Part shown: one piece after another, positions 961 through 23,689 of the stretch
Numbering within the stretch: position 1 is the stretch's first letter
How the letters are laid out: each line of letters starts with the position of its first letter
Assembly: GCA_045863855.1 (NCBI GenBank)
Contig: BTVV01000046.1
Coordinates: 1-43,155, forward strand
Source: Planctomycetota bacterium
Lineage (GTDB): Bacteria; Planctomycetota; SZUA-567; H5-PLA8
Length of the DNA stretch: 43,155 nt
Direction of reading: 5' to 3'
Notes under the pieces: generated by a model
Databases searched by the model: none
Told to the model about the DNA's origin: nothing
What the model saw: the letters and a program-made list of their open reading frames with translations, nothing else
Made by a program: the position numbers and the translations under genes

Positions 961-1132
961 GTGCACTCCGATGTTCGGGCTTCCGCCCATGCAGCAGCGG
1001 AGGCGGTCGGGAAAGATCGTCCCAAGCCTCCGCTGCTGCATCGCTGCCGTTGCCCCCAGGCTGGCGGCAACTTACTTCAAACGATGGAACCTACCCGCTA
1101 CTTGTGACGAAACGCAAGTCGGGCGCAAAAAT

Positions 1133-3115: not shown

Positions 3116-3118
3116 GAA

Positions 3119-3319
3119 TTAAGCTCCTTCGTTCAGGCGCTCGATGAGCGCGTGGACTTCTTCCTGGTCGAGCGGTTCGTGCTTCCCGCCGTCGGCCGCG
3201 ACTTCCGAATGCAGCTCGCCGGCCACGGATGGATCGTCGAGGTCGTTGGCCCAGTAATTCAGCGCGGCCAGGACGGTGGCAAGTTCGCGATCGGTAAGCG
3301 GATAAAGATCGGGCTCCAT
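3119..3319 (-). CDS. Hypothetical protein
   Basis: ORF with AAGGAG RBS, in the minus-strand operon. Confidence 0.7.
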   Translation of the reverse strand: MEPDLYPLTDRELATVLAALNYWANDLDDPSVAGELHSEVAADGGKHEPLDQEEVHALIERLNEGA

Positions 3320-3328
3320 CGGTTCTCC

Positions 3329-3475
3329 TTAAAGCTGGACCGTGAGGTAGTGGAAGACCGCGTAGAACGTGCACGCGGCCACGAAGAGCGCGGCACCGAG
3401 ACTCGGCGGCTCGCCGGCCTGATCCTGCTTGGCGGCATGGTTGGCGACGGCGGACAACAGTTCGACGGGTTCGAT
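3329..3475 (-). CDS. Small protein with C-terminal hydrophobic segment; apparent ATC start
   Basis: AGGAGG RBS 6 nt before ATC. 48 codons with high GC3 that exactly fill the gap between neighbours. Confidence 0.45.
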   Translation of the reverse strand: MEPVELLSAVANHAAKQDQAGEPPSLGAALFVAACTFYAVFHYLTVQL

Positions 3476-3478
3476 GAG

Positions 3479-3790
3479 TCACCTCCTGGAGCGATAGGCC
3501 GAGCGGAGCGCCTGGACGAAGGGCGTCCATGCGTTCGTGCGGGCCTGGGTTTGCTGGAATGGAATGGCGACAAAGGTGTCGTAGAGGCGCGTGAGTTCGG
3601 GATGAAAGTCCGAGCGCCAAAAGAATTCGTACGGCTTCCCGTCCTTGAGCTTCAGGATCGCAGAATCCACGGGAACCTTGGCATTCCAGAGCGGGATCAG
3701 GTAGTCGCAGAGGTGGTCGAAGGAATCGGGCATCGGCACAGCGATGACGCGGCGGCTCGCTAGTTCCGCACGCAGGCGTTCGACCGTCAT
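3479..3790 (-). CDS. Hypothetical protein
   Basis: ORF abutting its neighbours in the operon. Confidence 0.7.
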   Translation of the reverse strand: MTVERLRAELASRRVIAVPMPDSFDHLCDYLIPLWNAKVPVDSAILKLKDGKPYEFFWRSDFHPELTRLYDTFVAIPFQQTQARTNAWTPFVQALRSAYRSRR

Positions 3791-3791
3791 G

Positions 3792-4289
3792 CTACGCGGT
3801 CCGTAGTTTGCGGAGGCGCAAGACGCCCCGGACCACGCCCTCCACCATCAAGACCTTTTCCGAAATTACGCGGCGCTTCAGGCGGACCGCCGGCTTGACC
3901 TTGCGCCGCTCCGACAGAACGATCTGCGCATGGGCCGCGAGTTCGCGATAGGTGAACAGTTCTCGCAAGCCAGCGTCGAACGGCAGCCCTGTGTTCATAT
4001 TGAACGAGACCACCGGAACCCCGTACTTGTCGCATTCGACCGATGCGTAGTCGCCGAAGAGCCCGACGGAGAGGATGCCGGCGCCGAGATCGGGTCCGAC
4101 GTGGGCCAGGAATACGATGCCGGGCCGTTTAGCCAGCCGCTTCAGGCATTCCTCCGAACAGGCATCCGATTCCATCGAGACGACCTGCGAGGTCCGCTTC
4201 GCCATGGTGCAGCGGGAAAAGCCGGATGCCGCGAACAGATAGGCGTCGTGCGCAAAACACTTAACCGATGCGGGCTGGGCTGGGTGCAT
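3792..4289 (-). CDS. Hypothetical protein
   Basis: Start reassigned to ATG 4289 (MHPAQP...) after an AAGGAG RBS. Confidence 0.6.
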   Translation of the reverse strand: MHPAQPASVKCFAHDAYLFAASGFSRCTMAKRTSQVVSMESDACSEECLKRLAKRPGIVFLAHVGPDLGAGILSVGLFGDYASVECDKYGVPVVSFNMNTGLPFDAGLRELFTYRELAAHAQIVLSERRKVKPAVRLKRRVISEKVLMVEGVVRGVLRLRKLRTA

Positions 4290-4315
4290 GATGGATCTCC
4301 TTGGATCAGCGCGGC

Positions 4316-4822
4316 TTAGTACACTTGATGCGGCAGCTTGCCGACGGCGAGCTGGGCGCGGTGCTGCTGCATGGTCTCGTAGACTTCTTCGTCGAGCGCG
4401 TCTTTCTGGCCGGCGGCGAGGCGGCGGCGGTATTCTTCTTCGTCGTCGCAGTCGATGATGCCGAGATCGAGGCCGGGGATGTTCGAGTGCGCGGAGGATA
4501 CGGTCCCGCCTTCGAGGATCACGACGACTTGCGGGCGCTCGGCCGGTGCGTCGGAAAGCCATGCTCGCGCCGCTTGCTCACCGTTTGGACCAAAGTCCGC
4601 CACGATTGCCTGGGGTGAACCTTTGCGGTTCACGACCCATGAACTTGGCCCATATCGTGAACTCCGCAGAGATAATTCTAGTTCGCTCGTCGGCAGTGTT
4701 GGCGGTAGAAGCGTAGCGATGATCTCGACGGCTCGGGCCGCATACCTTTCGGGGTAATGCACCAGCAACTCTCCGATTAGTCGGCGCGCAGCCTGCATGG
4801 GCATGGATTCGGGCTCGATCAT
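4316..4822 (-). CDS. Hypothetical protein
   Basis: ORF with AGGAG RBS; VVVILEGGTV motif resembles VIVVMHGGVV in 6027-6290. Confidence 0.65.
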   Translation of the reverse strand: MIEPESMPMQAARRLIGELLVHYPERYAARAVEIIATLLPPTLPTSELELSLRSSRYGPSSWVVNRKGSPQAIVADFGPNGEQAARAWLSDAPAERPQVVVILEGGTVSSAHSNIPGLDLGIIDCDDEEEYRRRLAAGQKDALDEEVYETMQQHRAQLAVGKLPHQVY

Positions 4823-4877
4823 GGCGATTCTCCTGGTTTTGCGGGGATTGAAGGCGTTTCGCGGCGTTTGCGGCGGA

Positions 4878-5120
4878 TTACTTGCCGCTTAGGAACGCTT
4901 CGATCGCCTTATACGTGTTCTTAATGCCGAACTGCTTGCAGGTGCGCTTGATCGCGGGGCCGTCGTGGTGGTAAGACCGATCCCTGAAGGCCGCGCGCAT
5001 GCGCTCCGCGATCACGGGTACGCGATCGACTCCGAAGGCGTAGTCGCCGGGCATTTCGCGGACGCAGTCGGTCAGGTGCTTCTCGTACGCGGCCATCCAT
5101 TCATCAAGGCGGGACATCAT
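4878..5120 (-). CDS. Hypothetical phage-type protein
   Basis: ORF overlapping the upstream gene stop; GGAGG RBS. Confidence 0.7.
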   Translation of the reverse strand: MMSRLDEWMAAYEKHLTDCVREMPGDYAFGVDRVPVIAERMRAAFRDRSYHHDGPAIKRTCKQFGIKNTYKAIEAFLSGK

Positions 5121-5383
5121 TGATTGTCCTCCGCCTCATTCTCATCGGCCATTTGGGCAATATCGGAGACGTGCTCGGCCAGCAGACCTTCCGGGTACAA
5201 GGCTTGCAGCTCTCCGGCCAGCACCGCGACGACCACGAGGTCTTGGTCGCGGTTCATTTGCGCATACAATTCGGCGGCACTCTGCGGATCGGTCGCCCAG
5301 ACGTGCTCGGCAATCGCGATTCCGTCCGTCTCGTTGAACGCGATGATGGTGTACGGATTGTTCGGCTTCGGGTCTGAACTCAT
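5117..5383 (-). CDS. Hypothetical acidic protein
   Basis: ORF with AAGGAG RBS. Confidence 0.7.
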   Translation of the reverse strand: MSSDPKPNNPYTIIAFNETDGIAIAEHVWATDPQSAAELYAQMNRDQDLVVVAVLAGELQALYPEGLLAEHVSDIAQMADENEAEDNQ

Positions 5384-5393
5384 AAGATCTCCT

Positions 5394-5543
5394 TCAGGGC
5401 CGCGGCGCGGCCAGGGTTCGAGGCTTGGGGCGTTGGACCACGCCGCACTGCTGGCAGGTCCACTCGGTCTCCTTGACCGTGTGCTTCTGGGTGGACTTGC
5501 AGGCTGCGCAGTAGCGCAGGTCCGTGGCTCGCGGGCGCTTCAT
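5394..5543 (-). CDS. Small Zn-ribbon protein
   Basis: CAAC...CQQC; ATGA overlap with the upstream gene. Confidence 0.6.
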   Translation of the reverse strand: MKRPRATDLRYCAACKSTQKHTVKETEWTCQQCGVVQRPKPRTLAAPRP

Positions 5544-5779
5544 GGATCGAACGCCCGGTCGATGCCGCCGTACTCGGCGCCGCGTTCGGCCGCGAGTTCG
5601 CGCGTGGTCTTGCGGCAGAGGGTCGCAATCTGGATCAGGCTCAGGCCCGGCCCTTCGTGCGAAACCGGAGCCGACTCGCCGTGTGCCGAGCCGGCTTGAT
5701 AAATGCTCTCTATCCCGTCGGGTCCGACCTGGAAGACCTCGTACCCGTGTTCGTTGTACTCTCCGCAAATCTTGGGCAT
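5540..5779 (-). CDS. Hypothetical protein
   Basis: ORF with GGAG RBS. Confidence 0.65.
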   Translation of the reverse strand: MPKICGEYNEHGYEVFQVGPDGIESIYQAGSAHGESAPVSHEGPGLSLIQIATLCRKTTRELAAERGAEYGGIDRAFDP

Positions 5780-5782
5780 GGC

Positions 5783-5881
5783 TCACGCTCCCGTCAGTAG
5801 GTAGATGATCCCGGCGAGCGCGGCGACAACGCACGCCACGCCGATCAGCAGGATCCAAACGTCACGCTCGGCGCGTTTCAT
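5783..5881 (-). CDS. 32-aa single-TM peptide
   Basis: Manual translation MKRAERDVWILLIGVACVVAALAGIIYLLTGA; GGAG RBS. Confidence 0.55.
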   Translation of the reverse strand: MKRAERDVWILLIGVACVVAALAGIIYLLTGA

Positions 5882-6026
5882 GGGAATCTCCGGGGTTTAA
5901 GTGGGCCTGGGCGCAGGAGAGAACCGGCGTTCGTAACGCGCCGGTGACTGCGTGAGGGGTACTTCGTGGAGATTGGGCGGGTGACTACGAGGCATACGTC
6001 GCCCGCGCCCAGGCCCCCTCTATTCT

Positions 6027-6290
6027 TCAGGCGTTCGCGATGCGCCGGTCGGCTGCCTCGATTACGGGCTCGAGCGCCTTCTCGGATTCGAGTTCGGACT
6101 CGTGCTCGGAGTAGACGGCAAGGCCCTTGAACTGGCCCTTAGCCACCTCTTCTTCGATCTCGCCGCTCAAATACTTCGGATCCTCCAGCACGATCACTCG
6201 CCCTATGGCGACCTTCGGGTTGTTGTGCACGACTCGATCCACGACGCCACCGTGCATGACGACAATCACTTCCACCGCTTCGGCGCACAT
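6027..6290 (-). CDS. Hypothetical protein
   Basis: ATG 6290 after GGAG; in frame with ORF 6027..6557. Confidence 0.6.
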   Translation of the reverse strand: MCAEAVEVIVVMHGGVVDRVVHNNPKVAIGRVIVLEDPKYLSGEIEEEVAKGQFKGLAVYSEHESELESEKALEPVIEAADRRIANA

Positions 6291-6294
6291 GAGT

Positions 6295-6984
6295 TCAGTT
6301 CTCCAGGGCCTCGTCGGTCTCATGCGGCGCTTCGACGACGGCCGGCTGCGCCGAGGACGCCGACTTCGGTTCTGGGAGCCGGGCGGGCGTGAGGTAGAGC
6401 GCGGACTGCCCGAGGCTCTTGCGGAACGCTTCGGCGGATTCGCGGGTGCTGAAGGCGATCGCCTTGCGCCACTGCCGGGTCGCGGCCTGCCCGTCGCCGT
6501 GGAGGTACTCGCGGGCGCTGAAGCGCAGCGACCACGGCATCCCGCCGTCTTCGGCACGCTCGACCCGGATCAGCTTCGGCTTCTTGCGGGCCGGCCGGTC
6601 GTAGTACGCGCGGATCTTCTCGATCCACGCCGGGCTCACGCTGTCCAACGCTGCGGTCGCCGACTTGTGCCGGGTGCTCGAGTGGAGCGCGATGCCGGGC
6701 TGGATGGGGTGGTTCGAGGGGCGCAGCCGGGCGACCGGGCGGCCGCACGAATCGACGTAGGTGAACCACGCCGACTTGCCGGACTCGACTTCGCGGATCT
6801 CGCGGCGCTGGGCCTCGATCTCCTTGCGCTGCGCGTCCCGCAGCGCCTTCAGTTCGGCGGCGCGCTTGCGAGCCGCGGCGGCTTGCTCCCGCGCGCGGCG
6901 GTCCGCGTCCTTGGACGCCTGGACGGCCTTGTCCACGGAATCCCGGCCGAGCGCTTGGCCGAGCACGTTCTGCATCACGATCAT
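6295..6984 (-). CDS. Hypothetical protein with coiled-coil N-terminus
   Basis: ATG 6984 after AGGAG; in frame with ORF 6295..7020. Confidence 0.65.
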   Translation of the reverse strand: MIVMQNVLGQALGRDSVDKAVQASKDADRRAREQAAAARKRAAELKALRDAQRKEIEAQRREIREVESGKSAWFTYVDSCGRPVARLRPSNHPIQPGIALHSSTRHKSATAALDSVSPAWIEKIRAYYDRPARKKPKLIRVERAEDGGMPWSLRFSAREYLHGDGQAATRQWRKAIAFSTRESAEAFRKSLGQSALYLTPARLPEPKSASSAQPAVVEAPHETDEALEN

Positions 6985-7029
6985 TTGGATTCTCCTGACC
7001 TCGTGGTTGACCCTACCCAATGCTTGTGA

Positions 7030-7260
7030 TTAAACGCAAACCGGGAGCGCGGAAATATAACTGCGCTGGCGTACGCGCTCCGCCTTGTCGGCCTGTTCGA
7101 GCCATCGCTCCGCGCCGACCTCGTCGCCGCGTTCGGCCGCCTGGGCGGCGAATTCGAGACAGTCTGCGTGCTCGACCAGGCGATCGAGATGTTCCTTCTC
7201 GGCCCGGCGGCGGGATCGGCGCGCGCGGCGGCGCAGGTCGGAGACGTAGTAACGGGGCAT
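7030..7260 (-). CDS. Hypothetical protein
   Basis: AGGAG RBS immediately after a terminator hairpin. Confidence 0.65.
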   Translation of the reverse strand: MPRYYVSDLRRRARRSRRRAEKEHLDRLVEHADCLEFAAQAAERGDEVGAERWLEQADKAERVRQRSYISALPVCV

Positions 7261-7272
7261 CGCGGTGCTCCT

Positions 7273-7301
7273 AACAAAAAGCCCCGCCGGATTGGCGGGG
7301 C
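7273..7301 (-). terminator. Intrinsic terminator-like hairpin
   Basis: Minus strand GCCCCGCC-AATCC-GGCGGGGC followed by TTTTTGTT. Confidence 0.7.
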
Positions 7302-7371
7302 ACGGGACGACGGCGGGCCGTCCGGCTCGGAGCCTGATCGCAGGCCCCGGCCCGGAGGGTCCGGCTACTCC

Positions 7372-7494
7372 TTAACCCACTTGGTCCGGGCGGCGTAGGT
7401 CGCCCTCGCAGTTCAGCCAGGGCGTGAAGCCTTCGTACGTGAACTCGGGCCACTTCCCGTCCTTCATCACGTCGATCTTGACGTAGCGGGTCAT
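7372..7494 (-). CDS. Small hypothetical protein
   Basis: MTRYVKIDVMKDG...; ATGA overlap. Confidence 0.5.
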   Translation of the reverse strand: MTRYVKIDVMKDGKWPEFTYEGFTPWLNCEGDLRRPDQVG

Positions 7495-7781
7495 GCGTAT
7501 TTCTTCTCCACGTGGGCCTTGAAGCTCTGGAGCGTCACGCCGTAGGGCAAGCGGCCGACAAAGATCAATCGCTCTCCGTTGGGCTGAATGGCCTCGAAAA
7601 CGTGGGCGCCACGAAGATTCCGGTTCACGATGTCGAGAAGCTGCTTGGTCATCTCGGCGATACTGACCTCGCACTCGCCCCGATTGCGCTCCAGGGACGC
7701 CTGCACGTCGGACAGGGCGTCGGGGTCGTCCGGTCCGTTGTCGATGATCCCTCGCTCGATTTGGATGATGCGCGGCTTCAT
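7491..7781 (-). CDS. Hypothetical protein
   Basis: MKPRIIQIERG...; AAGGAG RBS; ATGA overlap. Confidence 0.65.
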   Translation of the reverse strand: MKPRIIQIERGIIDNGPDDPDALSDVQASLERNRGECEVSIAEMTKQLLDIVNRNLRGAHVFEAIQPNGERLIFVGRLPYGVTLQSFKAHVEKKYA

Positions 7782-7951
7782 GCTTGCTCCTTTTGCAGGG
7801 CGCGTTCCACCGCCGCGGCGACTCGTAAATAGCCGCCGGCGCGCAGGATCGCGACGATCTCGCTTGCGTTGTTCTGCGCTCGGATGGTTTCCAAGTTGCT
7901 CCTGACCATCCACATCTCGAATGGATCGAGCGGCCGCTGTTTCGTCTTCAT
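7778..7951 (-). CDS. Hypothetical protein
   Basis: MKTKQRPLDPFEMW...; abuts neighbours. Confidence 0.55.
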   Translation of the reverse strand: MKTKQRPLDPFEMWMVRSNLETIRAQNNASEIVAILRAGGYLRVAAAVERALQKEQA

Positions 7952-7953
7952 AT

Positions 7954-8151
7954 TCAGCCCGCCGCCACCACGAACCGGAGCGGTTCGCGGAGTTCTTTGC
8001 GGGCGGCGCGTTGGGCCGCGAACTTGGTGACGTAGGGCAGATCGTCGGAATCGCCCTGGGACTGCCAGCGCCAGGTCTTGACGCCGGGCGTCGGGCACGG
8101 GTTCGTGCGGTCGCGTTCGATGTAGACGGTGCGCAGGTTCTTCATGCTCAA
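7954..8151 (-). CDS. Hypothetical protein
   Basis: GGAGG RBS. Confidence 0.55.
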   Translation of the reverse strand: MSMKNLRTVYIERDRTNPCPTPGVKTWRWQSQGDSDDLPYVTKFAAQRAARKELREPLRFVVAAG

Positions 8152-8360
8152 TCCTCCATTCCCAGGCCCTCTCGGGCGGACTCGGCGACAGCGTGCGCCA
8201 GTTCGTTTCGGGTGGCCGCAGGTCCGGAGCAGATGTCCAGGATTTCTTGCAGCTTTTGGCGCATGCGAGCGCGCGATTTCTCGTCTCGCTCGTGCGCTTT
8301 GGCATCGGTCGCGATGCGCGCGTGGTAGATACGAAGCTGTTCCGGTGTCAATCCCGTCAT
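8148..8360 (-). CDS. Hypothetical protein
   Basis: MTGLTPEQL...; GGAGG RBS; ATGA overlap. Confidence 0.6.
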   Translation of the reverse strand: MTGLTPEQLRIYHARIATDAKAHERDEKSRARMRQKLQEILDICSGPAATRNELAHAVAESAREGLGMED

Positions 8361-8767
8361 TCGAGCGCCTCCGAGGCTTGTTTGAGTGCGGCTTCCATGC
8401 CGGCCCGAATTTGGGCGGACACCTCGGATAGCCAGTCGTATGCCTGATCGAAGGTGACTTCGCGCAGATTGCCGCGCTCGTAGATGTAGACGTGCGCCCA
8501 AGGCAGCGTGATCTTCATGCGCTCGACATCGCCGGAATCCCCGAACGCCTTGACCAGGCAGCACAGGTAGTACGGTGCGCCTTCGTCGGTCCAGGGACAT
8601 ATCAAGTGAGTTCCGGACTCCCGGAGTATCCAAACAAACTTATCGAGCTGCTCTTTCTTGATCCATTTCACGTCGATGCCGAGATCGCCGTCGTAGTATT
8701 TGGGCCAGCCGTGCTTGCGCACTTCTGCGGCCATGCAGGCGGGTAGTCCATGGGGAATGATGGGCAT
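8357..8767 (-). CDS. Hypothetical protein
   Basis: AGGAG RBS; operon context. Confidence 0.7.
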   Translation of the reverse strand: MPIIPHGLPACMAAEVRKHGWPKYYDGDLGIDVKWIKKEQLDKFVWILRESGTHLICPWTDEGAPYYLCCLVKAFGDSGDVERMKITLPWAHVYIYERGNLREVTFDQAYDWLSEVSAQIRAGMEAALKQASEALE

Positions 8768-8776
8768 GACGTTCTC

Positions 8777-9235
8777 CTAGTAGCCGGCCGCCTCGGCGGC
8801 GTAGTCGCGCTGGAATGCCCGAACGGAGCGCCAGTCCGGGAACGCGATGCCCGGTCCCGGCCAATCGCTCTCGTTCGCGTAGCCGTTCTTGAGATCCGCG
8901 ACCGGGCAGCAGGATTCGCTATGGGAATCGAGCCGCCCGTCGCAATCGCGCGCGGACTCTTCGAATTCCGCGTAGATGACCGCTTCGTCCTTCGGGTACT
9001 CGTACTTCGAGTATCGATGGCAGTAGCCCTCTTCGGTCGCTCCGCCTTCGGCCAGTTCGATCGTGTCGCCGGGGCGCATGGTCAGCTTGACCGGGCTGCA
9101 TTTGTGCGTGATCCAGAAGCGGGCCGTCCGGGTCGGCGTCTCTTTCAGGCGCTCCGGTTCGCCGGACTCTTCGCAGCCGGCGCAGAAGCCGTCGCCGCAA
9201 GGACAGGGATCCTGCGTGTATCGTCGATCAGGCAT
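8777..9235 (-). CDS. Hypothetical phage-type protein (DCDGR motif, Cys-rich N-terminus)
   Basis: ORF overlapping the upstream gene. Confidence 0.7.
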   Translation of the reverse strand: MPDRRYTQDPCPCGDGFCAGCEESGEPERLKETPTRTARFWITHKCSPVKLTMRPGDTIELAEGGATEEGYCHRYSKYEYPKDEAVIYAEFEESARDCDGRLDSHSESCCPVADLKNGYANESDWPGPGIAFPDWRSVRAFQRDYAAEAAGY

Positions 9236-9620
9236 GACGCATCCCCTTTCGGGCTTCGTATTGGGCCTTGCCGCAGGCCGACGTATCCACGCAGGTCATT
9301 TCGGCGACATCCTGGGCGCAGTAGCCCCGCGCCAGCATGACCTCGCGGCACTGCGCTTCGCGCGACGCGATCACGGTCGCGACGAATCGCTGAAGGAAAT
9401 AGATGTTCCAGTATCGGTCGCGCGGAGCCGCGCTGTCTTTAGGCGCGGGCCTGGCTTCGACGGTCCAGTTGGATCCGCTCGCATCGCCGCGCCCTTTGCC
9501 AATCCGCAGTTCCTTGGCCCGATAGCGCGCCTCCATCTCGCACATGAACTCGTGCGATGTGAAAGGCTGGGCCTCGCCGGTTGCGCGGTTCACGTGGTAC
9601 AGCATCCAGAGTTCGTCCAT
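9228..9620 (-). CDS. Hypothetical protein
   Basis: ATG 9620 after GGGAGG. Confidence 0.6.
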   Translation of the reverse strand: MDELWMLYHVNRATGEAQPFTSHEFMCEMEARYRAKELRIGKGRGDASGSNWTVEARPAPKDSAAPRDRYWNIYFLQRFVATVIASREAQCREVMLARGYCAQDVAEMTCVDTSACGKAQYEARKGMRHA

Positions 9621-9733
9621 GCGTCCTCCCTTGCGAATCTGGTTCGGGTGAGGTAGGTTGCGGATGAGGCTTGCGCCGGTTCCGCTGTGCTGCCCCCGTG
9701 GTGACAACACGGGGGCTTCGTTTTTAGTGACAC

Positions 9734-9819
9734 TAGGGGCAGAGGGATTCGAACCCTCACGAGGCTTGCGCCTCGCGGTCGTGACAAGACCGCGCGTCTG
9801 CCAGTTCCGCCATACCCCC
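9734..9819 (-). tRNA. Non-canonical class II tRNA: tRNA-Leu-like body with GTC (Asp) anticodon; CCA not encoded
   Basis: Full cloverleaf: GGGGGTA-TG-GCGGAACTGGCAGACGC-G-CGGTC[TTGTCAC]GACCG-CGAGGC(GCAA)GCCTCG-T-GAGGG[TTCGAAT]CCCTC-TGCCCCT-A. Confidence 0.9.
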
Positions 9820-9831
9820 AGGCACTACCCT

Positions 9832-10062
9832 TCAAAACAGCCTGCGATGCTCGACGCAAACATCCTCAACCCCTGCCTCTTTGAGCAGCCGCCGCGCGTA
9901 CGAAACATTGACTGGGCTGTGCATCGTGAGGTATTGGCCATCCAGAGAAAGCTCGTAGGCCCACTGCTTGAAGTGGCGGCTCATTACGGCGTCCACCTCC
10001 GTCCACTTCCAGCGGTAGGCCGGAATGGCCGGCCTCGGCTTCGGGCTGAGTTCCATGCTCAA
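9832..10062 (-). CDS. Hypothetical protein
   Basis: ORF ending 12 nt before the tRNA. Confidence 0.6.
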   Translation of the reverse strand: MSMELSPKPRPAIPAYRWKWTEVDAVMSRHFKQWAYELSLDGQYLTMHSPVNVSYARRLLKEAGVEDVCVEHRRLF

Positions 10063-10271
10063 GATCCTTTCTTAGCGTGCCGGGCGGCGCAGCGGTCCGC
10101 TTCCACGTCGTCGTCGAGGCGGCGCCAGCCCAGCCGTTCGTAGCGCTCGGGATCGGCCTCGTAGCGCTTGATGCCCTCGCGGGCGAAGTTGAAGTCGAGA
10201 CGGCTCTGGACACAGTAGCGGAACCAGTCGTCCAGCCGGTCCGGAGGCATGGTGGTTCTCTCGGAGTTCAT
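10059..10271 (-). CDS. Hypothetical protein
   Basis: MNSERTTMPP...; ATGA overlap. Confidence 0.55.
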   Translation of the reverse strand: MNSERTTMPPDRLDDWFRYCVQSRLDFNFAREGIKRYEADPERYERLGWRRLDDDVEADRCAARHAKKGS

Positions 10272-10549
10272 CGGCGTGTTCTCCAATCTCGCTGAAGCTG
10301 CCGGTATTCGACCTTGGTGAGCTTCCCGTCGTGCGGGTACATGGAGCGGATCACGCGGGACTCTTCGAAGCGGATCGCCAGATCGTCTCGCGTCGGGTCC
10401 ATGTGCCGACGCATGTCCTCCAGCCATTCCACCTTTTCGCGGATCCGGTTCAGCGCGTTGCGTTCGGCGGCTTCGCGGGTGAATCCGCAACCCGTAAAGC
10501 CTTCCACCGCTCCGTCGTGGTGGCGGTAGGCCAGCCTGTACTCGTACAT
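10268..10549 (-). CDS. Hypothetical protein
   Basis: AAGGAGG RBS. Confidence 0.7.
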   Translation of the reverse strand: MYEYRLAYRHHDGAVEGFTGCGFTREAAERNALNRIREKVEWLEDMRRHMDPTRDDLAIRFEESRVIRSMYPHDGKLTKVEYRQLQRDWRTRR

Positions 10550-10679
10550 GCGAGTCCTCCTTGTTCAGATGCCCACGGCGATCCAGGGCATCGGTTCGAT
10601 CGGCAGGCCGGACCATGCGATCAGCACGGAGCCGTCCGAGACGATCTGGATTCCGTACGAGAGCGTGTAGAAGCGCATT

Positions 10680-10865
10680 TCAGCGCCTCCAGGCCAGCGA
10701 GTTGTTGTTCGGGTCGTCTTTCGGATCGAACGCAGCGACGCTGGGGTCGCGCTTGCAGATCCGCGCGGCATGAACGAGCGCGCAGGTTTCGACCCAGTTC
10801 CAGCGGCCGTCGTCGCCACGGGTCCAGATGGCCACGTAGGCGGTTCGGTGAAGCACAACGGACAT
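10680..10865 (-). CDS. Hypothetical protein
   Basis: MSVVLHRTAY...; TAAGGAG RBS. Confidence 0.6.
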   Translation of the reverse strand: MSVVLHRTAYVAIWTRGDDGRWNWVETCALVHAARICKRDPSVAAFDPKDDPNNNSLAWRR

Positions 10866-10876
10866 GGCGGTTCTCC

Positions 10877-11269
10877 TTAGCTCATGTAAGAGCGACGGCA
10901 CCCTTGGTCGCAGAACTGGGCGTGGTGCGGCTGGTAGGGCATGCTTCGTCCGCACCAGCGGCATTCGCTGCCGGCGGCTTCGCGGATGGCTTGCAGGCGT
11001 CGTTCGTGGCGCCGCTTGAGCTTCACTTCGCGGTCGCGCGGAAGCCCGCCGCGGATGTTGATGATCTCGTTCGCGTAGTGCGCGAAGTCGCGCAGGATCT
11101 CTTCGCGCGATTGGGGCCACCAAGCCGCCAGCCCCTTCTTGAACATGCTGCCGGGCGGCGCTGATTTGACGCGCTTGTACGCCTCGACGTATTGGCCGGC
11201 CGTGACCATGCGATCCATGCACTTAAAATGCTTGGGCACCCATGGGGCCGGGGACGCGGTCGCGGGCAC
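10877..11269 (-). CDS. Hypothetical protein with C-terminal Zn finger
   Basis: CRWC...FCDQGC; AGGAGG RBS. Confidence 0.7.
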   Translation of the reverse strand: MPATASPAPWVPKHFKCMDRMVTAGQYVEAYKRVKSAPPGSMFKKGLAAWWPQSREEILRDFAHYANEIINIRGGLPRDREVKLKRRHERRLQAIREAAGSECRWCGRSMPYQPHHAQFCDQGCRRSYMS

Positions 11270-11493
11270 TAAAACACCTCCTGTCCCATGAGGTAATCCA
11301 CGAAGCAGTCGAAGCGCGCGTACGCGCGTTTCAGCGCTTCAGGATCGGGGTCGCCGGAGAGCATCTGGCTTTCGGGCGTCGCGGCGCGCTTGCAGACGGT
11401 TCCGCGCGCTTCGTCGAGCGCGCGGATGACCTCGCGCTTTAAGCGCGCGCGTTCGAGACGTGTCTCGGCTTCGGTCATGGCAGTCCGTGGCAT
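11269..11493 (-). CDS. Hypothetical protein
   Basis: MPRTAMTEAE...; TAAGGAG RBS. Confidence 0.6.
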   Translation of the reverse strand: MPRTAMTEAETRLERARLKREVIRALDEARGTVCKRAATPESQMLSGDPDPEALKRAYARFDCFVDYLMGQEVF

Positions 11494-11504
11494 CGTGGTT
11501 CTCC

Positions 11505-11732
11505 TTAGCAGTCGTCGGGGCCGGGCGTCGCCGGGAGTTCGAAGTAGCCGGCTTCGGCGCGGAGCGTGCGGATGGTTCCGTCGTCCGCCTGGATCCGTTC
11601 GGCGTAAATCCATTCGGGCGCGTAGATGATCTCGGGATCGCGCGCGGCCTTCAGAAACCAGCCGGCCGCGAAGCAGAGGGCCGCAACTCCGAGCAGCACG
11701 AGCGCGCGGGTTCGGTCGTATTTGTCGGGCAT
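11505..11732 (-). CDS. Small membrane-anchored protein
   Basis: N-terminal hydrophobic helix; GGAG RBS after a terminator. Confidence 0.6.
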   Translation of the reverse strand: MPDKYDRTRALVLLGVAALCFAAGWFLKAARDPEIIYAPEWIYAERIQADDGTIRTLRAEAGYFELPATPGPDDC

Positions 11733-11745
11733 GGCGATTCTCCAG

Positions 11746-11776
11746 AAACAAAAAAGCCCCACGGGATCGCGGGGCT
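11746..11776 (-). terminator. Intrinsic terminator-like hairpin
   Basis: Minus strand AGCCCCGCG-ATCC-CGTGGGGCT followed by a T-rich tract. Confidence 0.7.
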
Positions 11777-11869
11777 GACGTTGCGAATGAAAAGGCCGGG
11801 CGCGTCACATGTCGGCGTCGTGGACTCGATACAAGCTCCGTCTTGCCCGTGGCACGCGCCCGGCCCAGT

Positions 11870-12235
11870 TCATTTTCCTTGCGGCTTACGAACGTATTCC
11901 CCCAGCCGCACGTCGTAGCGGTACACGCGATCCAGCGGGGCGTAGGGCATCTTGTCGCACGTGCCGCACATTCGAGGCTTGTGTCCGCGCGGGATGTCCA
12001 TGTGATTCGGGCAGATGCAGCCGCGGTCGCAACAGCCGCACGTGAGGTGCTTGGTCGGCGCGCGTTCGATCGAGAACGCCGGCGCCGCTCCCCCGCCCCC
12101 GCTGAAGACTTCGCCCCGTTCGAGCGTGCGGGTAATCAGAGCGGCGTCATCGCGGAGCCCGTCGTCCTGGGCCAGCAGGGACGCAAGGGTGCCGCGCCAT
12201 TCGTGCGACGTGCCCTTATTGACGATGATGCGCAT
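11870..12235 (-). CDS. Cys-rich hypothetical protein
   Basis: CGCCDRGCICPNH...CGTC; AGGAGG RBS. Confidence 0.6.
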   Translation of the reverse strand: MRIIVNKGTSHEWRGTLASLLAQDDGLRDDAALITRTLERGEVFSGGGGAAPAFSIERAPTKHLTCGCCDRGCICPNHMDIPRGHKPRMCGTCDKMPYAPLDRVYRYDVRLGEYVRKPQGK

Positions 12236-12246
12236 GCAACGTCCTC

Positions 12247-12483
12247 CTATTTCGAGATCAGGACTGCCGGGTAGCGCTCGATCGTGTTCGCCCAATCCGC
12301 GCGGGGCTCGACGGCGATCACCTTCATCCGGCCGTCGAACGTGACGCCGGACGATACAACCGACTCGGCCGTGAGTTCGCGGATCTCGATGTCGCGCTGC
12401 CGCCAAAGGCTCTTGTGGAGTCCAATGACCGGGAGCGCCTCGATCTCGGACTCCGAGAGTCCGGAATGGTTGTGCGTAACCAT
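12247..12483 (-). CDS. Hypothetical protein
   Basis: AGGAG RBS. Confidence 0.65.
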   Translation of the reverse strand: MVTHNHSGLSESEIEALPVIGLHKSLWRQRDIEIRELTAESVVSSGVTFDGRMKVIAVEPRADWANTIERYPAVLISK

Positions 12484-12573
12484 GGCAATCGTTCTCCTGG
12501 GTTCAGGAACCTTCGTTCGAGGGCGACGTAGCGGCGTGCCGATTCAACGTCGCCCCCGTACGGAAGCGCCTGG

Positions 12574-12759
12574 TTAGTCGGCGGCGGCCGGGGTGAGCGT
12601 CCGCGCCGGCCGATAGTTCAGGTAGCCGAGCAGGTTCTCGCGCTGGCTGTTCAGGCGTTCGAGCTTGGCCATGAGCTTCGCGCGTTCGCGTTCGCACTTC
12701 GCCAGGTTCTGCGCCGCCATCGCGCGGTTGCGGATTTCTTCGATCGTGTCTTCGGGCAT
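12574..12759 (-). CDS. Small coiled-coil protein
   Basis: GGAGGT RBS. Confidence 0.65.
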   Translation of the reverse strand: MPEDTIEEIRNRAMAAQNLAKCERERAKLMAKLERLNSQRENLLGYLNYRPARTLTPAAAD

Positions 12760-12771
12760 GGTGCTACCTCC

Positions 12772-12801
12772 AAGAAAAGCCCCCGCCCGATTGGCAGGGG
12801 C
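12772..12801 (-). terminator. Intrinsic terminator-like hairpin
   Basis: Minus strand GCCCCTGCC-AATCG-GGCGGGGGC followed by TTTTCTT. Confidence 0.7.
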
Positions 12802-12831
12802 GAACGCTCGGGCTCTTAGGAGCGCGGGCGT

Positions 12832-13020
12832 TCAGGCGACCTGCTGCTTGGTTCGAGGCATGTAGAGCGGAGCGCCGTATTGCTTCGCGGTCAGCTCGGC
12901 GAGCGGGCGGATGGCCTCGGGCTTGCCCTGGACCGACTCTTCGGGAATTTCCTTCCCGTTGGCGTCCTCGACTTTCAGAGTCCACCATTCCGGCGAGTTC
13001 TGCGAAACGATCACGCGCAT
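12832..13020 (-). CDS. Hypothetical protein, first gene after the structured leader
   Basis: GAGGA RBS; ORF. Confidence 0.65.
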   Translation of the reverse strand: MRVIVSQNSPEWWTLKVEDANGKEIPEESVQGKPEAIRPLAELTAKQYGAPLYMPRTKQQVA

Positions 13021-13038
13021 GACGTTTCCTCTTTTCCA

Positions 13039-13567
13039 GGAAAGTCGGGACAGAGTTTCTCTGCGGATTTCGGTGAGAATTTAGGACGGCTGTTCAATGG
13101 AGATGCCTGGGGCCGGAGCGGTGCCTTGCGACACGACTCCGGCGCCCAGGCGATCCGTGTACGTCGTTCTAGCAGTTAGCTTTGACCCTCGGGCTACCGA
13201 CCTGGCTGGCCCCCAGCTTTAAGAGCGCTAGGTTCTCGAACTGGCTTGACGTTGGGAAGGGTTCAGGCGCTATGGCCTCGCAGACGGGATCCAGGGCATA
13301 CCTTTTTCGCCTGTTCTTTAGGATTTCGCTGGGCATGGTGTCCCAGCTACTACCAGGCACCCGACGCTGCGGCGTGACTCCCCGGCACGTTCAGCCGGAT
13401 AGGACATTCGAGTTACAAGCGGGCACGTGGTATCAGCACGATGCCGGCTTCCCGGTTCGGGCGGGCCGGCCACGGTGGACAGAGTTGCTCTGCACACCTG
13501 GCCAGTCCGGTTCAGGGACTCGCGGTTCCTGCAACGTCACGGTCGCCCAGTTCACACCCGACTTTCC
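13039..13567 (-). ncRNA. Candidate large structured non-coding RNA or leader (~530 nt)
   Basis: 11-bp closing stem 13039-13049/13557-13567; nested helices 13238-13244/13547-13553 and 13247-13254/13532-13539; many local hairpins; no convincing ORF. Confidence 0.55.
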
Positions 13568-14135
13568 GTAGGGACAGAGCATCTAAGGCGTTGCTCGACG
13601 CTAGGCGCGTCCAGCCTTCGATGCCTTGCCAGTCCGGAAAATCGGAACAAGCAACGGCTACGCTGCATATTGGATAGACTCGCCGATTGCATCCTGGACG
13701 GTTTAGCCGCTCCATACCGGAGCGACCGTCTAGGACCGCGCTCGACTGCAAACGCGCCTCTAGGACGCGCGCTATCGCTTGCGACCGGACTTCGCGAAGG
13801 AATCGGCTATGAGCGGAAAGCAGTAGAGCAATCGGAATGGAGCGTAGGGTTTGCCCGGATTCGATGGAGCGCGCTATCGGATGCCCGATTCCCAGACGGA
13901 TAAGGCGCGCCACTTGTTGAGGTGGCCACAATCCGGGTTAGGACTCATTCCGAACGGCTAACGCGCGTAATCGAGCGGATTCTACCTATCGCGCCGATTG
14001 TTGCGGCTTTCCCTACCGATTCCCTCGTACCTATCCGGCCTATTCACTGCATCCGGAACGGATCACAATTCCATTCCAATAGAGCAGGCGCGCCAGACTT
14101 CTAGGCGCGCCTACCCTACGGAAACGGATTAGCGT

Positions 14136-14786
14136 TTACGAAGCCGCCGCCGCCGTATACTCCGGCTTTTCCGAACCGACCGAAGCCGCAACGGTGGAAA
14201 CGCTGGCCGATTCCTTCGCGGCCGATTCCACGCGCTCCAATACGCCCTTGGTCAAGGATTGGAGCGCTTCCCCGTTGCATCCTTGCGCGATATGGAGCGC
14301 CAGCCGGACCGTTTCGTCCGTCGTCAAGTGCCGTAGGGAATCGACGGCGCGCTCGTACTTGGTCTTTTCCTTCGGAGTTGAGCGCTTGCGACCCATAGCG
14401 CTATCGAGAATCGAAAGCGCTTCCTTGTCCGAACCGGCATCCGCCCAGTCTTGAAAGCATCCGTGTTTGTTGGCGTCTTTCATTTGAGCGGCGAGACTGC
14501 ACGCGCGCTCGACTCGCGACCGATCGACGATGCAAGGCAGACAAGCCACTTCGAAACGGTCCAGCGCTTCCTTGCGCGTTTCGGTCGGATGCTTGGCTTT
14601 GATCCAAGCCACGACACGTTTGCCCAGCGTTGCCAGCCGAACGCGCGTTTCCCTGGACAACGCGCTAAAATCCTTCGCGATTGCCAAGGGCGATTCGACT
14701 TCCTTCACTTCCTGGACAGGCTGAACCGGAGCGCGCTCCGCTTGCGCATCCGCTTCCACGTCCAACGGCACAAATCCGCTATCCAT
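14136..14786 (-). CDS. Hypothetical protein
   Basis: ATG 14786 (MDSGF...) after AGGAG; long ORF in a compositionally distinct segment. Confidence 0.6.
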   Translation of the reverse strand: MDSGFVPLDVEADAQAERAPVQPVQEVKEVESPLAIAKDFSALSRETRVRLATLGKRVVAWIKAKHPTETRKEALDRFEVACLPCIVDRSRVERACSLAAQMKDANKHGCFQDWADAGSDKEALSILDSAMGRKRSTPKEKTKYERAVDSLRHLTTDETVRLALHIAQGCNGEALQSLTKGVLERVESAAKESASVSTVAASVGSEKPEYTAAAAS

Positions 14787-14999
14787 GACTCCTACTCCTA
14801 TCCGCTCCATACCGGAGCGCTCCTAAGCGCTTCCGACCAAACCCGAACGGGCTTGCAATCGGGAAGTGCTCGACTACAAACCGACCGAACGCGCAAGCCA
14901 AACGAGACCGACAAGCCCGACCATTCCAGGAAGGCAAACGAGGAAGGCAACGGCTAGGGATTTTGGCGACATAGGAAGCGCTCCGAACGGTTTTCGATA

Positions 15000-15950
15000 C
15001 GGGAAGTAAACAACCTAATTCCGATTTTGCAATCGTCGCAATTGTAATTTTGCAAGTATCTCATAAAGTGAATGCAGAAAAGTATTTAGGATATACACAA
15101 AATCAATTATGATTCAGTGTGAGTTTATAAGTATATGGTATTAAAAGAGTTAACGAATTGAATCTAAATTGAAGCATTAGAGAATCTTTATTGAATCATT
15201 AAGACCAATTACCATTTTAATCTCATAACTGCATTACATATAATTACTTACGAGATTGAACTACCTATGTTGTACCTAGGTTGAATATCGTGTAAAGGCT
15301 TGTAAGGCAGGGAGTTAGAGGGGGAATCCTAACTTTCCCGGACTAGTTCCGAGACTTAGGTACCTAAGTGAAATTTTTCGATTTTCCCGCAGGTCATATC
15401 AATATGATAAATTTTTCCTAATCATACCCTAAATGATATTTATATCTTTTCCCTCGTTTTCCTAACTTAGGTTAGAGCAACGATAATATAACCTCAATAC
15501 TTGCAAGCGCTTGCGTCGAGCATAGGGGGGATATTTTCCCAAGTTAGGTCTATTTTAGCAAGGTAGCCGGGGAGGTCCTCACCTCACACTATCCCCCATT
15601 TCAAACCGCCAGTCCCATTTCAAATTTGCAAAAATTTAGGGTACATCCGGTCCTTCTGATTGAATCATCCTCGTTTCCAGGGAGGGGGGATGTGTTTGGC
15701 AGCAAGGGGTTACGAATACTCAGAGCCCCTCCCCTACTACCAAAGGCGTGTACTCTATATATTGTATAAGAGTATTGAATATATATAGATATAGGGGGTT
15801 AAAAAGGAAAACACTTCCCTTATATAGACTATTCTGAAGCGCATACTGCCTGTTTAGCCCTCGCGCTCAATTATTAAACCTTGTCTATCAAACGAGTTAA
15901 GACGCCACGATTCGCCTCATATTAAAGCGCAAACAGCGGGACTTACGTGG
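15000..15950. other. AT-rich non-coding block with repeated protein-binding-type motifs (candidate packaging terminus, origin or oriT)
   Basis: TAA-N19-TT(A/G) at 15064, 15128, 15226, 15293, 15489 and 15875; repeated CCTAA/TTAGG; 16-bp palindrome ACTTAGGTACCTAAGT at 15354-15369. Confidence 0.6.
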
Positions 15951-16049
15951 GATTCTGGGCGAAACGCTGGAAAGCCCGGTTTGCTGCGCGAACGCTCGAT
16001 CGGTTGAGAATTGGGGGTCCAGAGAGCTAGTGTTTATGCAGGAGGCCCT

Positions 16050-16238
16050 ATGCGAGCGATCAACTCCGATGACCCCGAAGCCGCGACCGACAGTTCGGTT
16101 GACCGGAAGATCCGCCGGCTCGCGCTCAACTGCTCGTACTGCCGGCCTCACCGCGGCGAGAACGCACGCAGGCAAGCGCGGCGCTCCTGGAAGCACCGAA
16201 GCAAAGCGCGCAAAAGCTGGGCACGGGGTGCGGGGTGA
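16050..16238 (+). CDS. Small basic protein (CSYCRPH motif)
   Basis: GGAGG RBS, ATG 16050. Confidence 0.6.
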   Translation: MRAINSDDPEAATDSSVDRKIRRLALNCSYCRPHRGENARRQARRSWKHRSKARKSWARGAG

Positions 16239-16242
16239 GTCT

Positions 16243-16542
16243 ATGGGCTGGGCGACTAGGCATATCGAGCGGCTGAAAGCTGGCGAGACAGTCTCGTTCC
16301 GGCCACATGGCAACTCGATGAAGGGCAAGATCGAGTCGGGCCAGCTTTGCACCGTCGCCCCCGTTGGCGCCGAGGGCCTTCAGGTCGGAGACGTGGTCTT
16401 GTGCAAGGTGAACGGGAATGAGTTCCTGCACCTGATTAAAGCCATACGCGGCAACCAGTACCAGATCGGAAACAACCGCGGCGGGATCAACGGGTGGACG
16501 TCGGCGAACCAGATCTACGGCCGCTGCATTCGAGTTCAATAA
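16243..16542 (+). CDS. Small S24/S26 peptidase-fold protein
   Basis: FRPHGNSM...VGDVVLCKV...LHLIKA...GNN pattern. Confidence 0.7.
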   Translation: MGWATRHIERLKAGETVSFRPHGNSMKGKIESGQLCTVAPVGAEGLQVGDVVLCKVNGNEFLHLIKAIRGNQYQIGNNRGGINGWTSANQIYGRCIRVQ

Positions 16543-16607
16543 CCGCGATTTCATCGACATGATCGGCCGTACATGTACGCGCCATAAGCACGAGAGACGC
16601 TGCCGCC

Positions 16608-17012
16608 ATGATCGAAGGCCATGAGGTAGGGGTGAAGTGGTCGCGCGAGGATTCGTGCTGGATCGCCGAAGCGATCGACCTGCCGTTCGTTGCGGCACAC
16701 GGGGAATCGCTCGACGAGGCGATCCGCCAGCTCGAGATCTGTATCCAGGCTGTCGCGGAGGAACGCAACCGGGAAGCGTTTAGACGCAACGTGGATCGAC
16801 TTTTCGACCGCCACCCGTGGAAATACGCGATCTTCCACGAAGCACGCCTGGCCGGCATCGCGCCGGATCGAGCGACCGCGCTGCGGTACGCGCGCACGAA
16901 GCCTGGGGCGCTGGCCCGGCAGATCGTCCGCGCGAGCATGACGCACCGCGGCCGGCCGTGCTTCACGATGGAGGACGCCGCGAAGATGGATTGCCCGTGG
17001 CCGCCGTACTAA
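16608..17012 (+). CDS. HicB-like antitoxin domain protein (no adjacent hicA seen)
   Basis: WSREDSCWIAEAIDLPFVAAHGESLDEAIRQL matches the HicB N-terminal pattern. Confidence 0.65.
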   Translation: MIEGHEVGVKWSREDSCWIAEAIDLPFVAAHGESLDEAIRQLEICIQAVAEERNREAFRRNVDRLFDRHPWKYAIFHEARLAGIAPDRATALRYARTKPGALARQIVRASMTHRGRPCFTMEDAAKMDCPWPPY

Positions 17013-17252
17013 GCCCGCTTATTTAATTCGAATCCACGATTCGCGAATTGCGAACACCTAACTACTTGCCGGGCTACGGATTGTTTATTTGACTGGATCC
17101 CCGAATCGGGCCAGCAATCGGGCCATTGTGGCCCGTAAGCCGCAATCGCCCCGGCGCCCGAGTCGCTTCGAAACATCGGCACTTATCACGAACTACCGAC
17201 GTTCCGGATTCAAAATCCGCTGCTTTCCTATGGGCGCCGCCTCGCCGCAACA

Positions 17253-17295
17253 CCGGCACACGAACCGGCACAAATTCCGGCACAAATCCGGCGCA
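17253..17295. repeat. Four CCGGC(A/G)CA direct repeats (integrase arm-site-like) of the left element
   Basis: Copies at 17253, 17265, 17277 and 17288, ending ~35 bp from the tRNA 3' end. Confidence 0.6.
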
Positions 17296-17328
17296 CGATA
17301 TATAAGTCCTTGGCGTTAGAAGCTTTTA

Positions 17329-17405
17329 TGGCGTCCCCAGGAGGACTCGAACCTCCAACCTGCGGATTAGAAATCCGCTGCTCTGTCCGGTTGAGCTATG
17401 GGGAC
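17329..17405 (-). tRNA. tRNA-Arg(TCT), CCA encoded
   Basis: GTCCCCA-TA-GCTCAACCGGACAGAGC-A-GCGGA[TTTCTAA]TCCGC-AGGTT-GGAGG[TTCGAGT]CCTCC-TGGGGAC-GCCA. Confidence 0.97.
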
Positions 17406-17406
17406 G
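17364..17406. repeat. att direct repeat, left copy (43 bp)
   Basis: Identical to 33939-33981. Confidence 0.95.
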
Positions 17407-17503
17407 TTACTTAAAGCCTTTATTATCAAACACTTTGCTTGTTGACTCGCTCCCGATACTATGATACAACACCGGTACAACGATACTACGGGAGACAACA
17501 CCC

Positions 17504-19641: not shown

Positions 19642-19686
19642 GTTTTAGCGTCACCCGCCGCACCTAGACTTGGAAAAGGAAGGTAC

Positions 19687-19893: not shown

Positions 19894-20030
19894 GCAGTAA
19901 AGAAGCGGGGCCGGCCAGTGTTGGAATCACCGACCGACCCCTAACCGTTCCACGTGAAATAGGCACGCGGCCCGGCTGCCGATTGTATCGGCAGATTCGG
20001 CGCTGCCCTACACTTTGAGAGGGGCAGACC

Positions 20031-23687: not shown

Positions 23688-23689
23688 AA

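Follow-up and report, generated by a model that had tools for sequence, protein, structure and literature searches.

How can a bacterium carry a transfer RNA gene that joins the body of a leucine tRNA to an aspartate anticodon, and what might such an RNA do? The question is raised by a gene on the minus strand of the window, as the whole 43,155-nucleotide stretch of planctomycete DNA analysed here is called. The gene lies among small ORFs of an integrative element, next to a predicted small RNA (sRNA) read from the other strand. The features that bear on the question are the following; G001 and G002 are two sister genomes.

1..17328, minus strand: portion of an integrative element, inserted where tRNA-Arg(TCT) has its 3' end; includes the module within a run of about 29 small co-directional ORFs
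9228..9620, minus strand: small ORF of 130 aa downstream of the tRNA, no family match; other genes stand in its place in G001 and G002
9631..9659, plus strand: promoter-like site TTGCGA-17-TAGGTT upstream of the sRNA
9664..9725, plus strand: predicted 62-nt antisense sRNA, putative antitoxin, convergent with the tRNA and not overlapping it; its start is placed from the promoter-like site
9664..9677, plus strand: sRNA segment 1, a 14-nt complement of the variable arm (-27.9 kcal/mol)
9678..9691, plus strand: sRNA segment 2, 14 nt complementary to tRNA nucleotides 4-17 (5' strand of the acceptor and D-arm)
9692..9725, plus strand: intrinsic terminator of the sRNA, a 9-bp stem (9692-9716) and a U-tail
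9734..9819, minus strand: tRNA with leucine identity elements and a GUC anticodon, putative toxin
9759..9775, minus strand: long variable arm, 5 bp plus C44-G, with a GCAA loop
9781..9787, minus strand: anticodon loop UUGUCAC, with the anticodon GUC at 9783-9785
9832..10056, minus strand: small ORF of 74 aa, upstream of the tRNA and without a family match
9840..9861, minus strand: terminator-like hairpin immediately upstream of the tRNA; G001 and G002 do not conserve it
17329..17405, minus strand: host tRNA-Arg(TCT), the inferred integration site

The tRNA gene is called by ARAGORN as tRNA-Asp(gtc) at 9733-9820 on the minus strand, and 9734-9819 matches the Rfam model RF00005 with a full cloverleaf (47.5 bits, E 7.8e-9); it is absent from a whole-window Rfam scan at the gathering threshold. 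The acceptor stem has 7 bp and the T-stem 5 bp (7/5). The acceptor is intact, starts with a G1.U72 wobble pair and includes G2-C71, the discriminator is A73 (the A at 9734), and CCA is not encoded. The D-arm is of the leucine type, with A15 (facing U48), G18G19 and A20a, and the bases of the tertiary contacts G18:U55, G19-C56 and U54:A58 are all present. The anticodon stem is paired throughout (5/5), and a single G separates the variable stem from U48, as in the tRNA-Leu genes of the host. The fold z-score is -3.14, with 0 of 200 shuffles equally stable, and the minimum-energy fold departs from the cloverleaf in the D and anticodon arms. A sequence-only reading of this DNA had described most of this anatomy, and the cloverleaf, the D-arm that it quoted, A15:U48, A73, the loop UUGUCAC and the GCAA variable loop were all recovered by inspection, Rfam and ARAGORN. 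It had passed over the minus strand, the G1.U72 pair, the missing CCA and the antisense neighbour.

Passages of PMC9976931 state that A73 counts towards tRNA-Leu identity and that E. coli LeuRS does not need the leucine anticodon, that the anticodon is the strongest aspartate determinant in bacteria, and that G73 and G1-C72 belong to the aspartate set. By E. coli rules the window tRNA has the leucine elements A73, A15:U48, G18G19 and A20a, and lacks the leucine anticodon base A35. It also carries every aspartate determinant of the anticodon region (G34, U35, C36 and C38), and has A73 and G1.U72 in place of G73 and G1-C72. An assembly error, which the earlier reading had named as a risk, is ruled out by a 938-nt contig from a second sample of the same study (X2) that spans 9687-10624 with 0 differences, and by a GUC gene in both G001 and G002.

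The tRNA belongs to a family. Scans with patterns that combine a leucine D-arm with GUC and a long variable arm returned 12 stretches from the genome collection, 47 from metagenomes and 1 from IMG/VR, which together hold 57 distinct tRNAs, a lower bound because the patterns were exact. The host names of the 12 genome-collection stretches belong to what we take to be six phyla. The D-loop bases were fixed by the search pattern, so their conservation is no evidence; outside the pattern, A73 is kept in 46 of 57 and U48 in 56 of 57, and the aspartate marks G73 and C38 occur in 5/57 and 16/57. The anticodon stem is fully paired in 54 of the 57, with 44 different sequences, the 1:72 pair is formed in 39, and loop positions 32 and 38 vary freely. 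GUC is kept in 25 tRNAs (25/57) whose acceptor is imperfect. The earlier claim of a leucine body with a conserved GUC is borne out by these relatives, which come from genomes and metagenomes alike.

Such tRNAs are rare. When any non-leucine anticodon is allowed, matches occur in 6 of 401 genomes of the phylum, in 3 of 17 genomes of the family, all of one genus, and in 50 viral stretches, led by GUU, GCC and UUA. The GUC form is on only 1 IMG/VR contig. BLAST of the module against 50,697 phage records returned nothing, and against plasmids two weak matches, one of which was inspected and has a leucine (CAA) anticodon. Related Leu-body tRNAs without an antisense partner include ochre-suppressor-like (UUA; L072, L091, L097, L117, L118) and amber-suppressor-like (CUA; L078, L126) forms. 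Viral long-arm GUU tRNAs with G73, likewise without a partner (L077, L081, L083, L084, L086-L089, L093, L096, L101, L106, L110, L114, L115), are probably a separate family.

A further subclass (GUC, GCC or AGG) has perfect inner stems, acceptor pairs 1-3 unpaired and no trans antisense (L024, L035, L038, L040, L043, L057, L060, L061), with further members at L063, L069, L073, L079, L099, L102 and L103. These frayed tRNAs could be uncharged decoys or pro-forms that need end repair; the pattern presumably resembles 5'-edited mitochondrial tRNAs, a speculative parallel. At L015, L021, L032, L048 and L063 the 5' leader is complementary to the 3' end of its own tRNA, possibly a cis lock on maturation that replaces a trans antisense RNA. 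A hairpin upstream of the tRNA, in part complementary to it, is found at L045, L055, L066 and L070.

The ordinary tRNAs of the host do not appear to be missing. The host genome (G000) has a tRNA-Asp(GUC), a full tRNA-Leu set, one LeuRS and one AspRS by profile counts over the cut-off, a gene of the CCA/poly(A)-polymerase family and RNase III. An ordinary tRNA-Asp-like match, in most cases judged by the pattern that it matched, occurs in 12 of 13 host genomes, with L019 and L022 outside the count; a strict tRNA-Asp pattern missed the gene in 6 of 10 genomes, and a looser one recovered 5 of those 6. Recoding of GAC to leucine was considered and rejected: when orthologues are aligned with those of G002, Asp is kept at 84 of 110 Asp positions, 0 of the 110 are opposite Leu, and 0 of 122 Leu positions face Asp. 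The Asp content is 5.8% in the element versus 5.4% in five host genes. Host-wide recoding was also rejected, as host GlmS keeps Asp at conserved motifs and sites. Programmed recoding of the element's own genes and the replacement tRNA-Asp proposed by the sequence-only reading are both disfavoured, the first by the lack of any Asp/Leu exchange and the second by the scarcity of G73 and C38 and the coexisting tRNA-Asp-like genes. The activity best supported for the window tRNA would be Asp-to-Leu mistranslation.

The predicted sRNA combines two complementary segments with a terminator. Segment 2 pairs with tRNA nucleotides 4-17 through 9 Watson-Crick and 5 G.U pairs and zero mismatches; its differences from a perfect complement are all transitions. 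The terminator loop GUGACAA (9701-9707, plus strand) is the exact complement of the anticodon loop. The terminator lies beyond the tRNA's 3' end, on the opposite strand, and a 9-nt gap separates the end of the sRNA (9725) from that of the tRNA (9734). Because the segments stand in a different order from that in the tRNA, the sRNA is not a simple duplicate of it. The hexamers and spacing of the promoter-like site are kept in G001 and G002 while the spacer varies; the promoter scan called nothing, the site being below threshold (7 of 12), and its -35 is next to what is likely the ribosome-binding site of the ORF on the opposite strand. No Rfam family covers the sRNA.

Co-folding of the sRNA with its own tRNA gives -21.8 kcal/mol, compared with -12.5 for the runner-up among 70 tRNA calls and -7.0 kcal/mol for the host tRNA-Asp. 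When the 28 nt at the 5' end of the sRNA are shuffled, 0 of 1000 versions equal the energy of the duplex. In the predicted complex the D-arm, the variable arm and the acceptor are opened. Contigs of RNA runs X11 and X12, from related strains, cover the flanks and not 9414-10071; such contigs carry neither level nor strand, and small RNAs are often lost from them. The complementarity suggests that the tRNA and a cognate antisense RNA would make up a two-RNA module, rather than the tRNA being a lone oddity.

A partner of this kind was sought in the own flank of each tRNA, within 150 nt, as complementarity to the anticodon and variable arms compared with shuffles (p<=0.05). It is detected beside 20 of 32 GUC tRNAs with an intact acceptor, meaning fully paired and followed by A73, versus 4 of 25 frayed ones, a split chosen after the trend was seen and applied to loci that are related rather than independent. 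The controls give 1 of 9 canonical tRNA-Leu and 0 of 13 viral long-arm GUU tRNAs (1/22 together), and Fisher tests of the intact GUC tRNAs versus the comparison groups give p of 5e-4 and 1e-5. Among tRNAs with other anticodons the counts are 6/19 intact and 0/14 frayed. No antisense is detectable within 150 nt of the remaining 12 of the 32 intact GUC tRNAs. From these frequencies, the partner accompanies the chargeable-looking form.

The partner also follows changes in the tRNA. The own flank ranks first against the flanks of other loci for 11 of 57 tRNAs; L049 stands outside this count, as its top score comes from a paralogous tRNA and not from an sRNA, and outside the 150-nt positives. The bases facing loop positions 32 and 38 are Watson-Crick partners in 18 and 20 of 23 selected loci (permutation p 2.5e-4 and below 5e-5), in a test that is partly circular, some loci having been selected on a helix that spans the loop, and for which the borderline positives L022 and L069 were left out and L049 was added. 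In G001, loop positions 32 and 38 and the variable loop of the tRNA have changed, and the flanking RNA mirrors every change. The terminator stem of L098 (GCC) is the same as that of L014 (GUC), with the loop core TGACA replaced by GGCAA, and L121 (CUC), L122 and L127 (both CGC) each carry the complement of their own anticodon and no TGACA. At L049:700-1111, beside recA, the convergent module is present in two tandem copies; one sRNA matches its own variable arm exactly, and the sRNA of the other copy no longer matches.

Two layouts occur: convergent, as in the window, and tandem, with tRNA, promoter and sRNA on one strand. Both place the U-tailed terminator on the complementary strand, and the anticodon complement lies within the terminator loop at 11 loci. 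Tandem loci have an extra copy of the anticodon complement 9-28 nt past the tRNA, at the expected position of a -35 box. This copy follows the anticodon in L080, L121, L122 and L127, three of which are from one genus, and not in L098. An anticodon complement TTGACA that doubles as a -35 box would explain the dominance of GUC. Among named genomes, the clear antisense cases are all from planctomycetes.

The genomic context is that of a mobile element. As the sequence-only reading had noted for a small-gene operon, the tRNA sits inside the run of about 29 small co-directional ORFs, which have almost no family matches. A 45-bp copy of the 3' end of tRNA-Arg(TCT), with an adjacent tyrosine integrase, lies on contig C8 of G000 and probably marks the far end of the element, a link inferred across contigs. 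The run is syntenic with an island of G002 that also carries a type I restriction system, and G001 has its module in another island, which carries DUF932, an integrase and a RelE-type pair. The ORFs that flank the module differ in all three genomes; the 74-aa ORF is not shared with G002 and so is not a fixed partner. None of the 137 neighbouring ORFs from 54 other loci is a widely common protein neighbour, and none is a synthetase, although an ArgRS gene adjoins one module with a CGC anticodon. Of these loci, 6 have transposases and 1 an integrase among the neighbours, several have restriction or defence-like genes, and others have housekeeping genes. GUC tRNAs adjoin IS1595-type or DDE+SWIM transposases at L023, L026, L034, L044, L045 and L055, in none of which the antisense score is significant. 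Nuclease or defence-like genes stand beside L017, L030, L038 and L054, and at L011, L028 and L064 the module stands alone between housekeeping genes. The two hairpins of the window that contain TTGTCAC were also considered as recombination sites; this reading was rejected, as the 7-mer is observed 2 times versus 2.67 expected, no recombinase is near and the att sites of the element map elsewhere.

Other parts of the DNA have features of their own. A phage-satellite-like island at 17364-33981, with an integrase, an int-alpA RNA, a DnaB/AAA primase-helicase and a small terminase, is bounded by direct repeats, 43 bp long, of the 5' part of tRNA-Arg(TCT), so that the one tRNA gene serves two elements, one per end. 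At the head of the small-gene run, 13100-14100 and 14950-15950 have no convincing ORFs, one of them at 40% GC; they are conserved in G002 (82% and 95%) and may hold promoters, an origin or non-coding RNAs of the element. An ORF of 660 aa at 1133-3115 has no Pfam match, a weak PHROG hit and viral neighbours in the Atlas only below threshold. On contig C1 of G000, 23.6-28.2 kb holds an array of 26 tRNA genes, many with unusual D-arms.

The explanation that we favour, and hold to be somewhat better than an even bet, is that the tRNA is an Asp-to-Leu mistranslating toxin held off by a cognate antisense RNA antitoxin, without any protein. The host CCA-adding enzyme and LeuRS would mature the tRNA and charge it with leucine, which the GUC anticodon would deliver at GAC and GAU codons, poisoning the proteome. 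The sRNA, which would be transcribed separately, would keep the tRNA off. Its terminator loop, complementary to the anticodon loop and co-varying with it, would kiss that loop, and its 5' part would then zip into the variable arm, the D-arm and the acceptor strand, leaving the tRNA unfolded or exposed to nucleases and perhaps to decay. If the tRNA is the more stable of the two RNAs, the toxin would be released when the element is lost or transcription is shut off, with addiction that stabilises the element, or abortive infection, as the outcome. In favour of this explanation, leucine marks outside the search pattern are kept and aspartate marks are not. Toxicity is argued for most strongly, if indirectly, by the distribution of the partner, which accompanies tRNAs that look chargeable and is mostly absent beside frayed and ordinary ones. 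Excerpts of PMC5389517 supply a precedent, a serine-inserting allo-tRNA that killed E. coli. Toxicity alone does not explain why GUC is kept in the 25 tRNAs with imperfect acceptors. At even odds, in our estimate, the loci represent something wider: protein-free modules of roughly 200 bp, selfish or anti-phage, that form a widespread family, in which a host-charged leucine tRNA toxin with a swappable anticodon (Asp, Gly, Glu, Ala) would co-evolve with an antitoxin that reads its anticodon loop, and in whose tandem layout the anticodon complement in the trailer would also be the -35 box of the antitoxin.

Parts of the evidence can be read in other ways. Perhaps the sRNA instead tunes a sub-lethal level of Asp-to-Leu substitution, which slows growth or diversifies proteins under stress or at some stage of the element's cycle. 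The three modules that stand alone between housekeeping genes could then mean domestication, and the window tRNA, inside the small-gene run and lacking its own conserved promoter, may be produced only on induction of the run. However, Asp-to-Leu is a drastic substitution, and a distribution so patchy and rare, often beside transposases, an integrase or defence-like genes, fits a selfish module, so that we think a regulated, non-lethal switch unlikely. An anticodon-nuclease decoy, cut in place of the host tRNA-Asp and kept harmless or silent by the sRNA until needed, was among the functions proposed from the sequence alone. It would account for the constancy of GUC in many versions with unpaired acceptor ends, which are possibly not chargeable and mostly without an antisense partner, and it suits the nuclease or defence-like genes at four loci. 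A decoy would not need A73 or U48, however, there is free variation at positions 32 and 38, the sRNA keeps pace when the anticodon changes to Gly, Glu and Ala, and the acceptor in the window is intact. We give the decoy little credence for the module, and it may stay mainly as a reading of the frayed subclass.

Nor does the sRNA have to be an inhibitor: it might help the tRNA as a chaperone or guide during its folding, its processing or the editing of its anticodon, or act like a T-box, as a sensor in which the tRNA switches the terminator. At 11 loci the complement of the anticodon lies in a terminator loop, where a tRNA-sensing switch would need it, but the predicted complex, in which three parts of the tRNA are opened, fits inactivation better than sensing, the genes past the terminator differ in identity and direction, and convergent read-through yields only more antisense; we therefore regard these roles as doubtful. 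It is very improbable that the RNA is a genuine aspartate tRNA on an unusual body, whether as a replacement or to evade a nuclease, or that it recodes GAC to leucine for the element. G34-U35-C36-C38 and G2-C71 could allow some aspartylation in the window, yet A73, G1.U72, the rarity of G73 and the orthologue alignments all speak against it, and a harmless tRNA-Asp would need no cognate antisense RNA. Least credible of all is a neutral by-product, in which a tRNA-Leu decays and duplications have left the neighbouring matches as scars. In its favour, integration sites commonly have short repeats next to tRNA genes, and the differences in segment 2 are all transitions. Against this, the segment order differs from the tRNA, both orientations occur, a promoter-like site and a terminator enclose the segments, the segments track changes in the tRNA, and stems are compensated across the 57 sequences; the co-variation has already largely refuted it.

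Among known systems, the nearest relatives of the tRNA are allo-tRNAs, long-arm bacterial tRNAs from metagenomes whose anticodon is mismatched to their identity; in the available parts of Mukai et al. (PMC5389517) and a review (PMC7609411), GUC is among their three commonest anticodons, and they are often near toxin-antitoxin genes and transposons. The mismatched anticodon, including GUC, is shared, and the allo-tRNA tested in PMC5389517 mistranslated and killed E. coli. The stems differ: allo-tRNAs have 8/4 or 9/3 acceptor/T stems and, in the missense cases tested, serine identity, whereas the window family has 7/5 stems, a leucine D-arm and A73, and two GUC allo-tRNA rows in the supplement of PMC5389517 have a different D-arm. 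The word "antisense" is absent from the main-text portions of PMC5389517 and PMC7609411 and from the allo-tRNA supplement. In Streptomyces and Kitasatospora, tRNA-ProX and ProRSx include dual-identity tRNAs with several anticodons that mistranslate and are toxic in E. coli, according to extracts of PMC11415595. That system needs a dedicated, co-encoded synthetase and has A34, whereas the window module has G34, an RNA partner, a single LeuRS and no synthetase partner. Part of the tRNAscan-SE 2.0 paper (PMC8450103) treats hybrid tRNAs in general, with no Leu-body GUC case there.

As a pair of RNAs, the module would resemble type VIII toxin-antitoxin systems, whose validated loci in the consulted entries of TADB 3.0 are only CreTA and SdsR-RyeA (PMC10767807); in these, two RNA partners lie next to each other on one strand or on opposite strands, as would the tRNA and the sRNA predicted here from sequence. 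SdsR and RyeA overlap on opposite strands, whereas the predicted sRNA does not overlap its tRNA and is on the same strand in tandem loci. In CreTA, CreA is reported to repress transcription through CRISPR Cascade and CreT to sequester tRNA, whereas here the putative toxin is the tRNA itself. The CreTA antitoxin has CRISPR-like repeats on its flanks; for the module, no CRISPR repeat family was matched in the Rfam scans, and direct complementarity between sRNA and tRNA would make Cascade unnecessary. Type I antisense antitoxins and the kissing-loop antisense RNAs of plasmids have their own promoter and terminator, pair loop first and target an mRNA or a primer RNA. The module is like them in its convergent or tandem layout and loop-first pairing, and unlike them in that the target is a tRNA and not, as for type I, the message of a peptide toxin. 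A full-text literature search, in which most subscription papers were outside reach and hits were mostly by title, returned neither a GUC family with a leucine body nor an antisense RNA directed at a tRNA toxin. Taken by itself, the tRNA family may already have been listed, and the GUC tRNA without its partner would count as a variant among natural mistranslating tRNAs. For a tRNA with a separately encoded, co-varying antisense RNA no match was found, and the combination appears to be new at the level of sequence architecture.

How hosts survive natural mistranslating tRNAs, and what purpose these serve, is left open for tRNA-ProX in the available text of PMC11415595 and left as an association for allo-tRNAs in that of PMC5389517. 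A cognate antisense RNA would be a concrete answer to the question of survival, testable with two short RNAs. If the favoured explanation is true, the module would be a toxin-antitoxin system whose toxin corrupts the genetic code and in which a small RNA targets a tRNA. It would also represent a class that annotation pipelines file as ordinary tRNA-Asp, and a natural, allele-specific off-switch for suppressor tRNAs.
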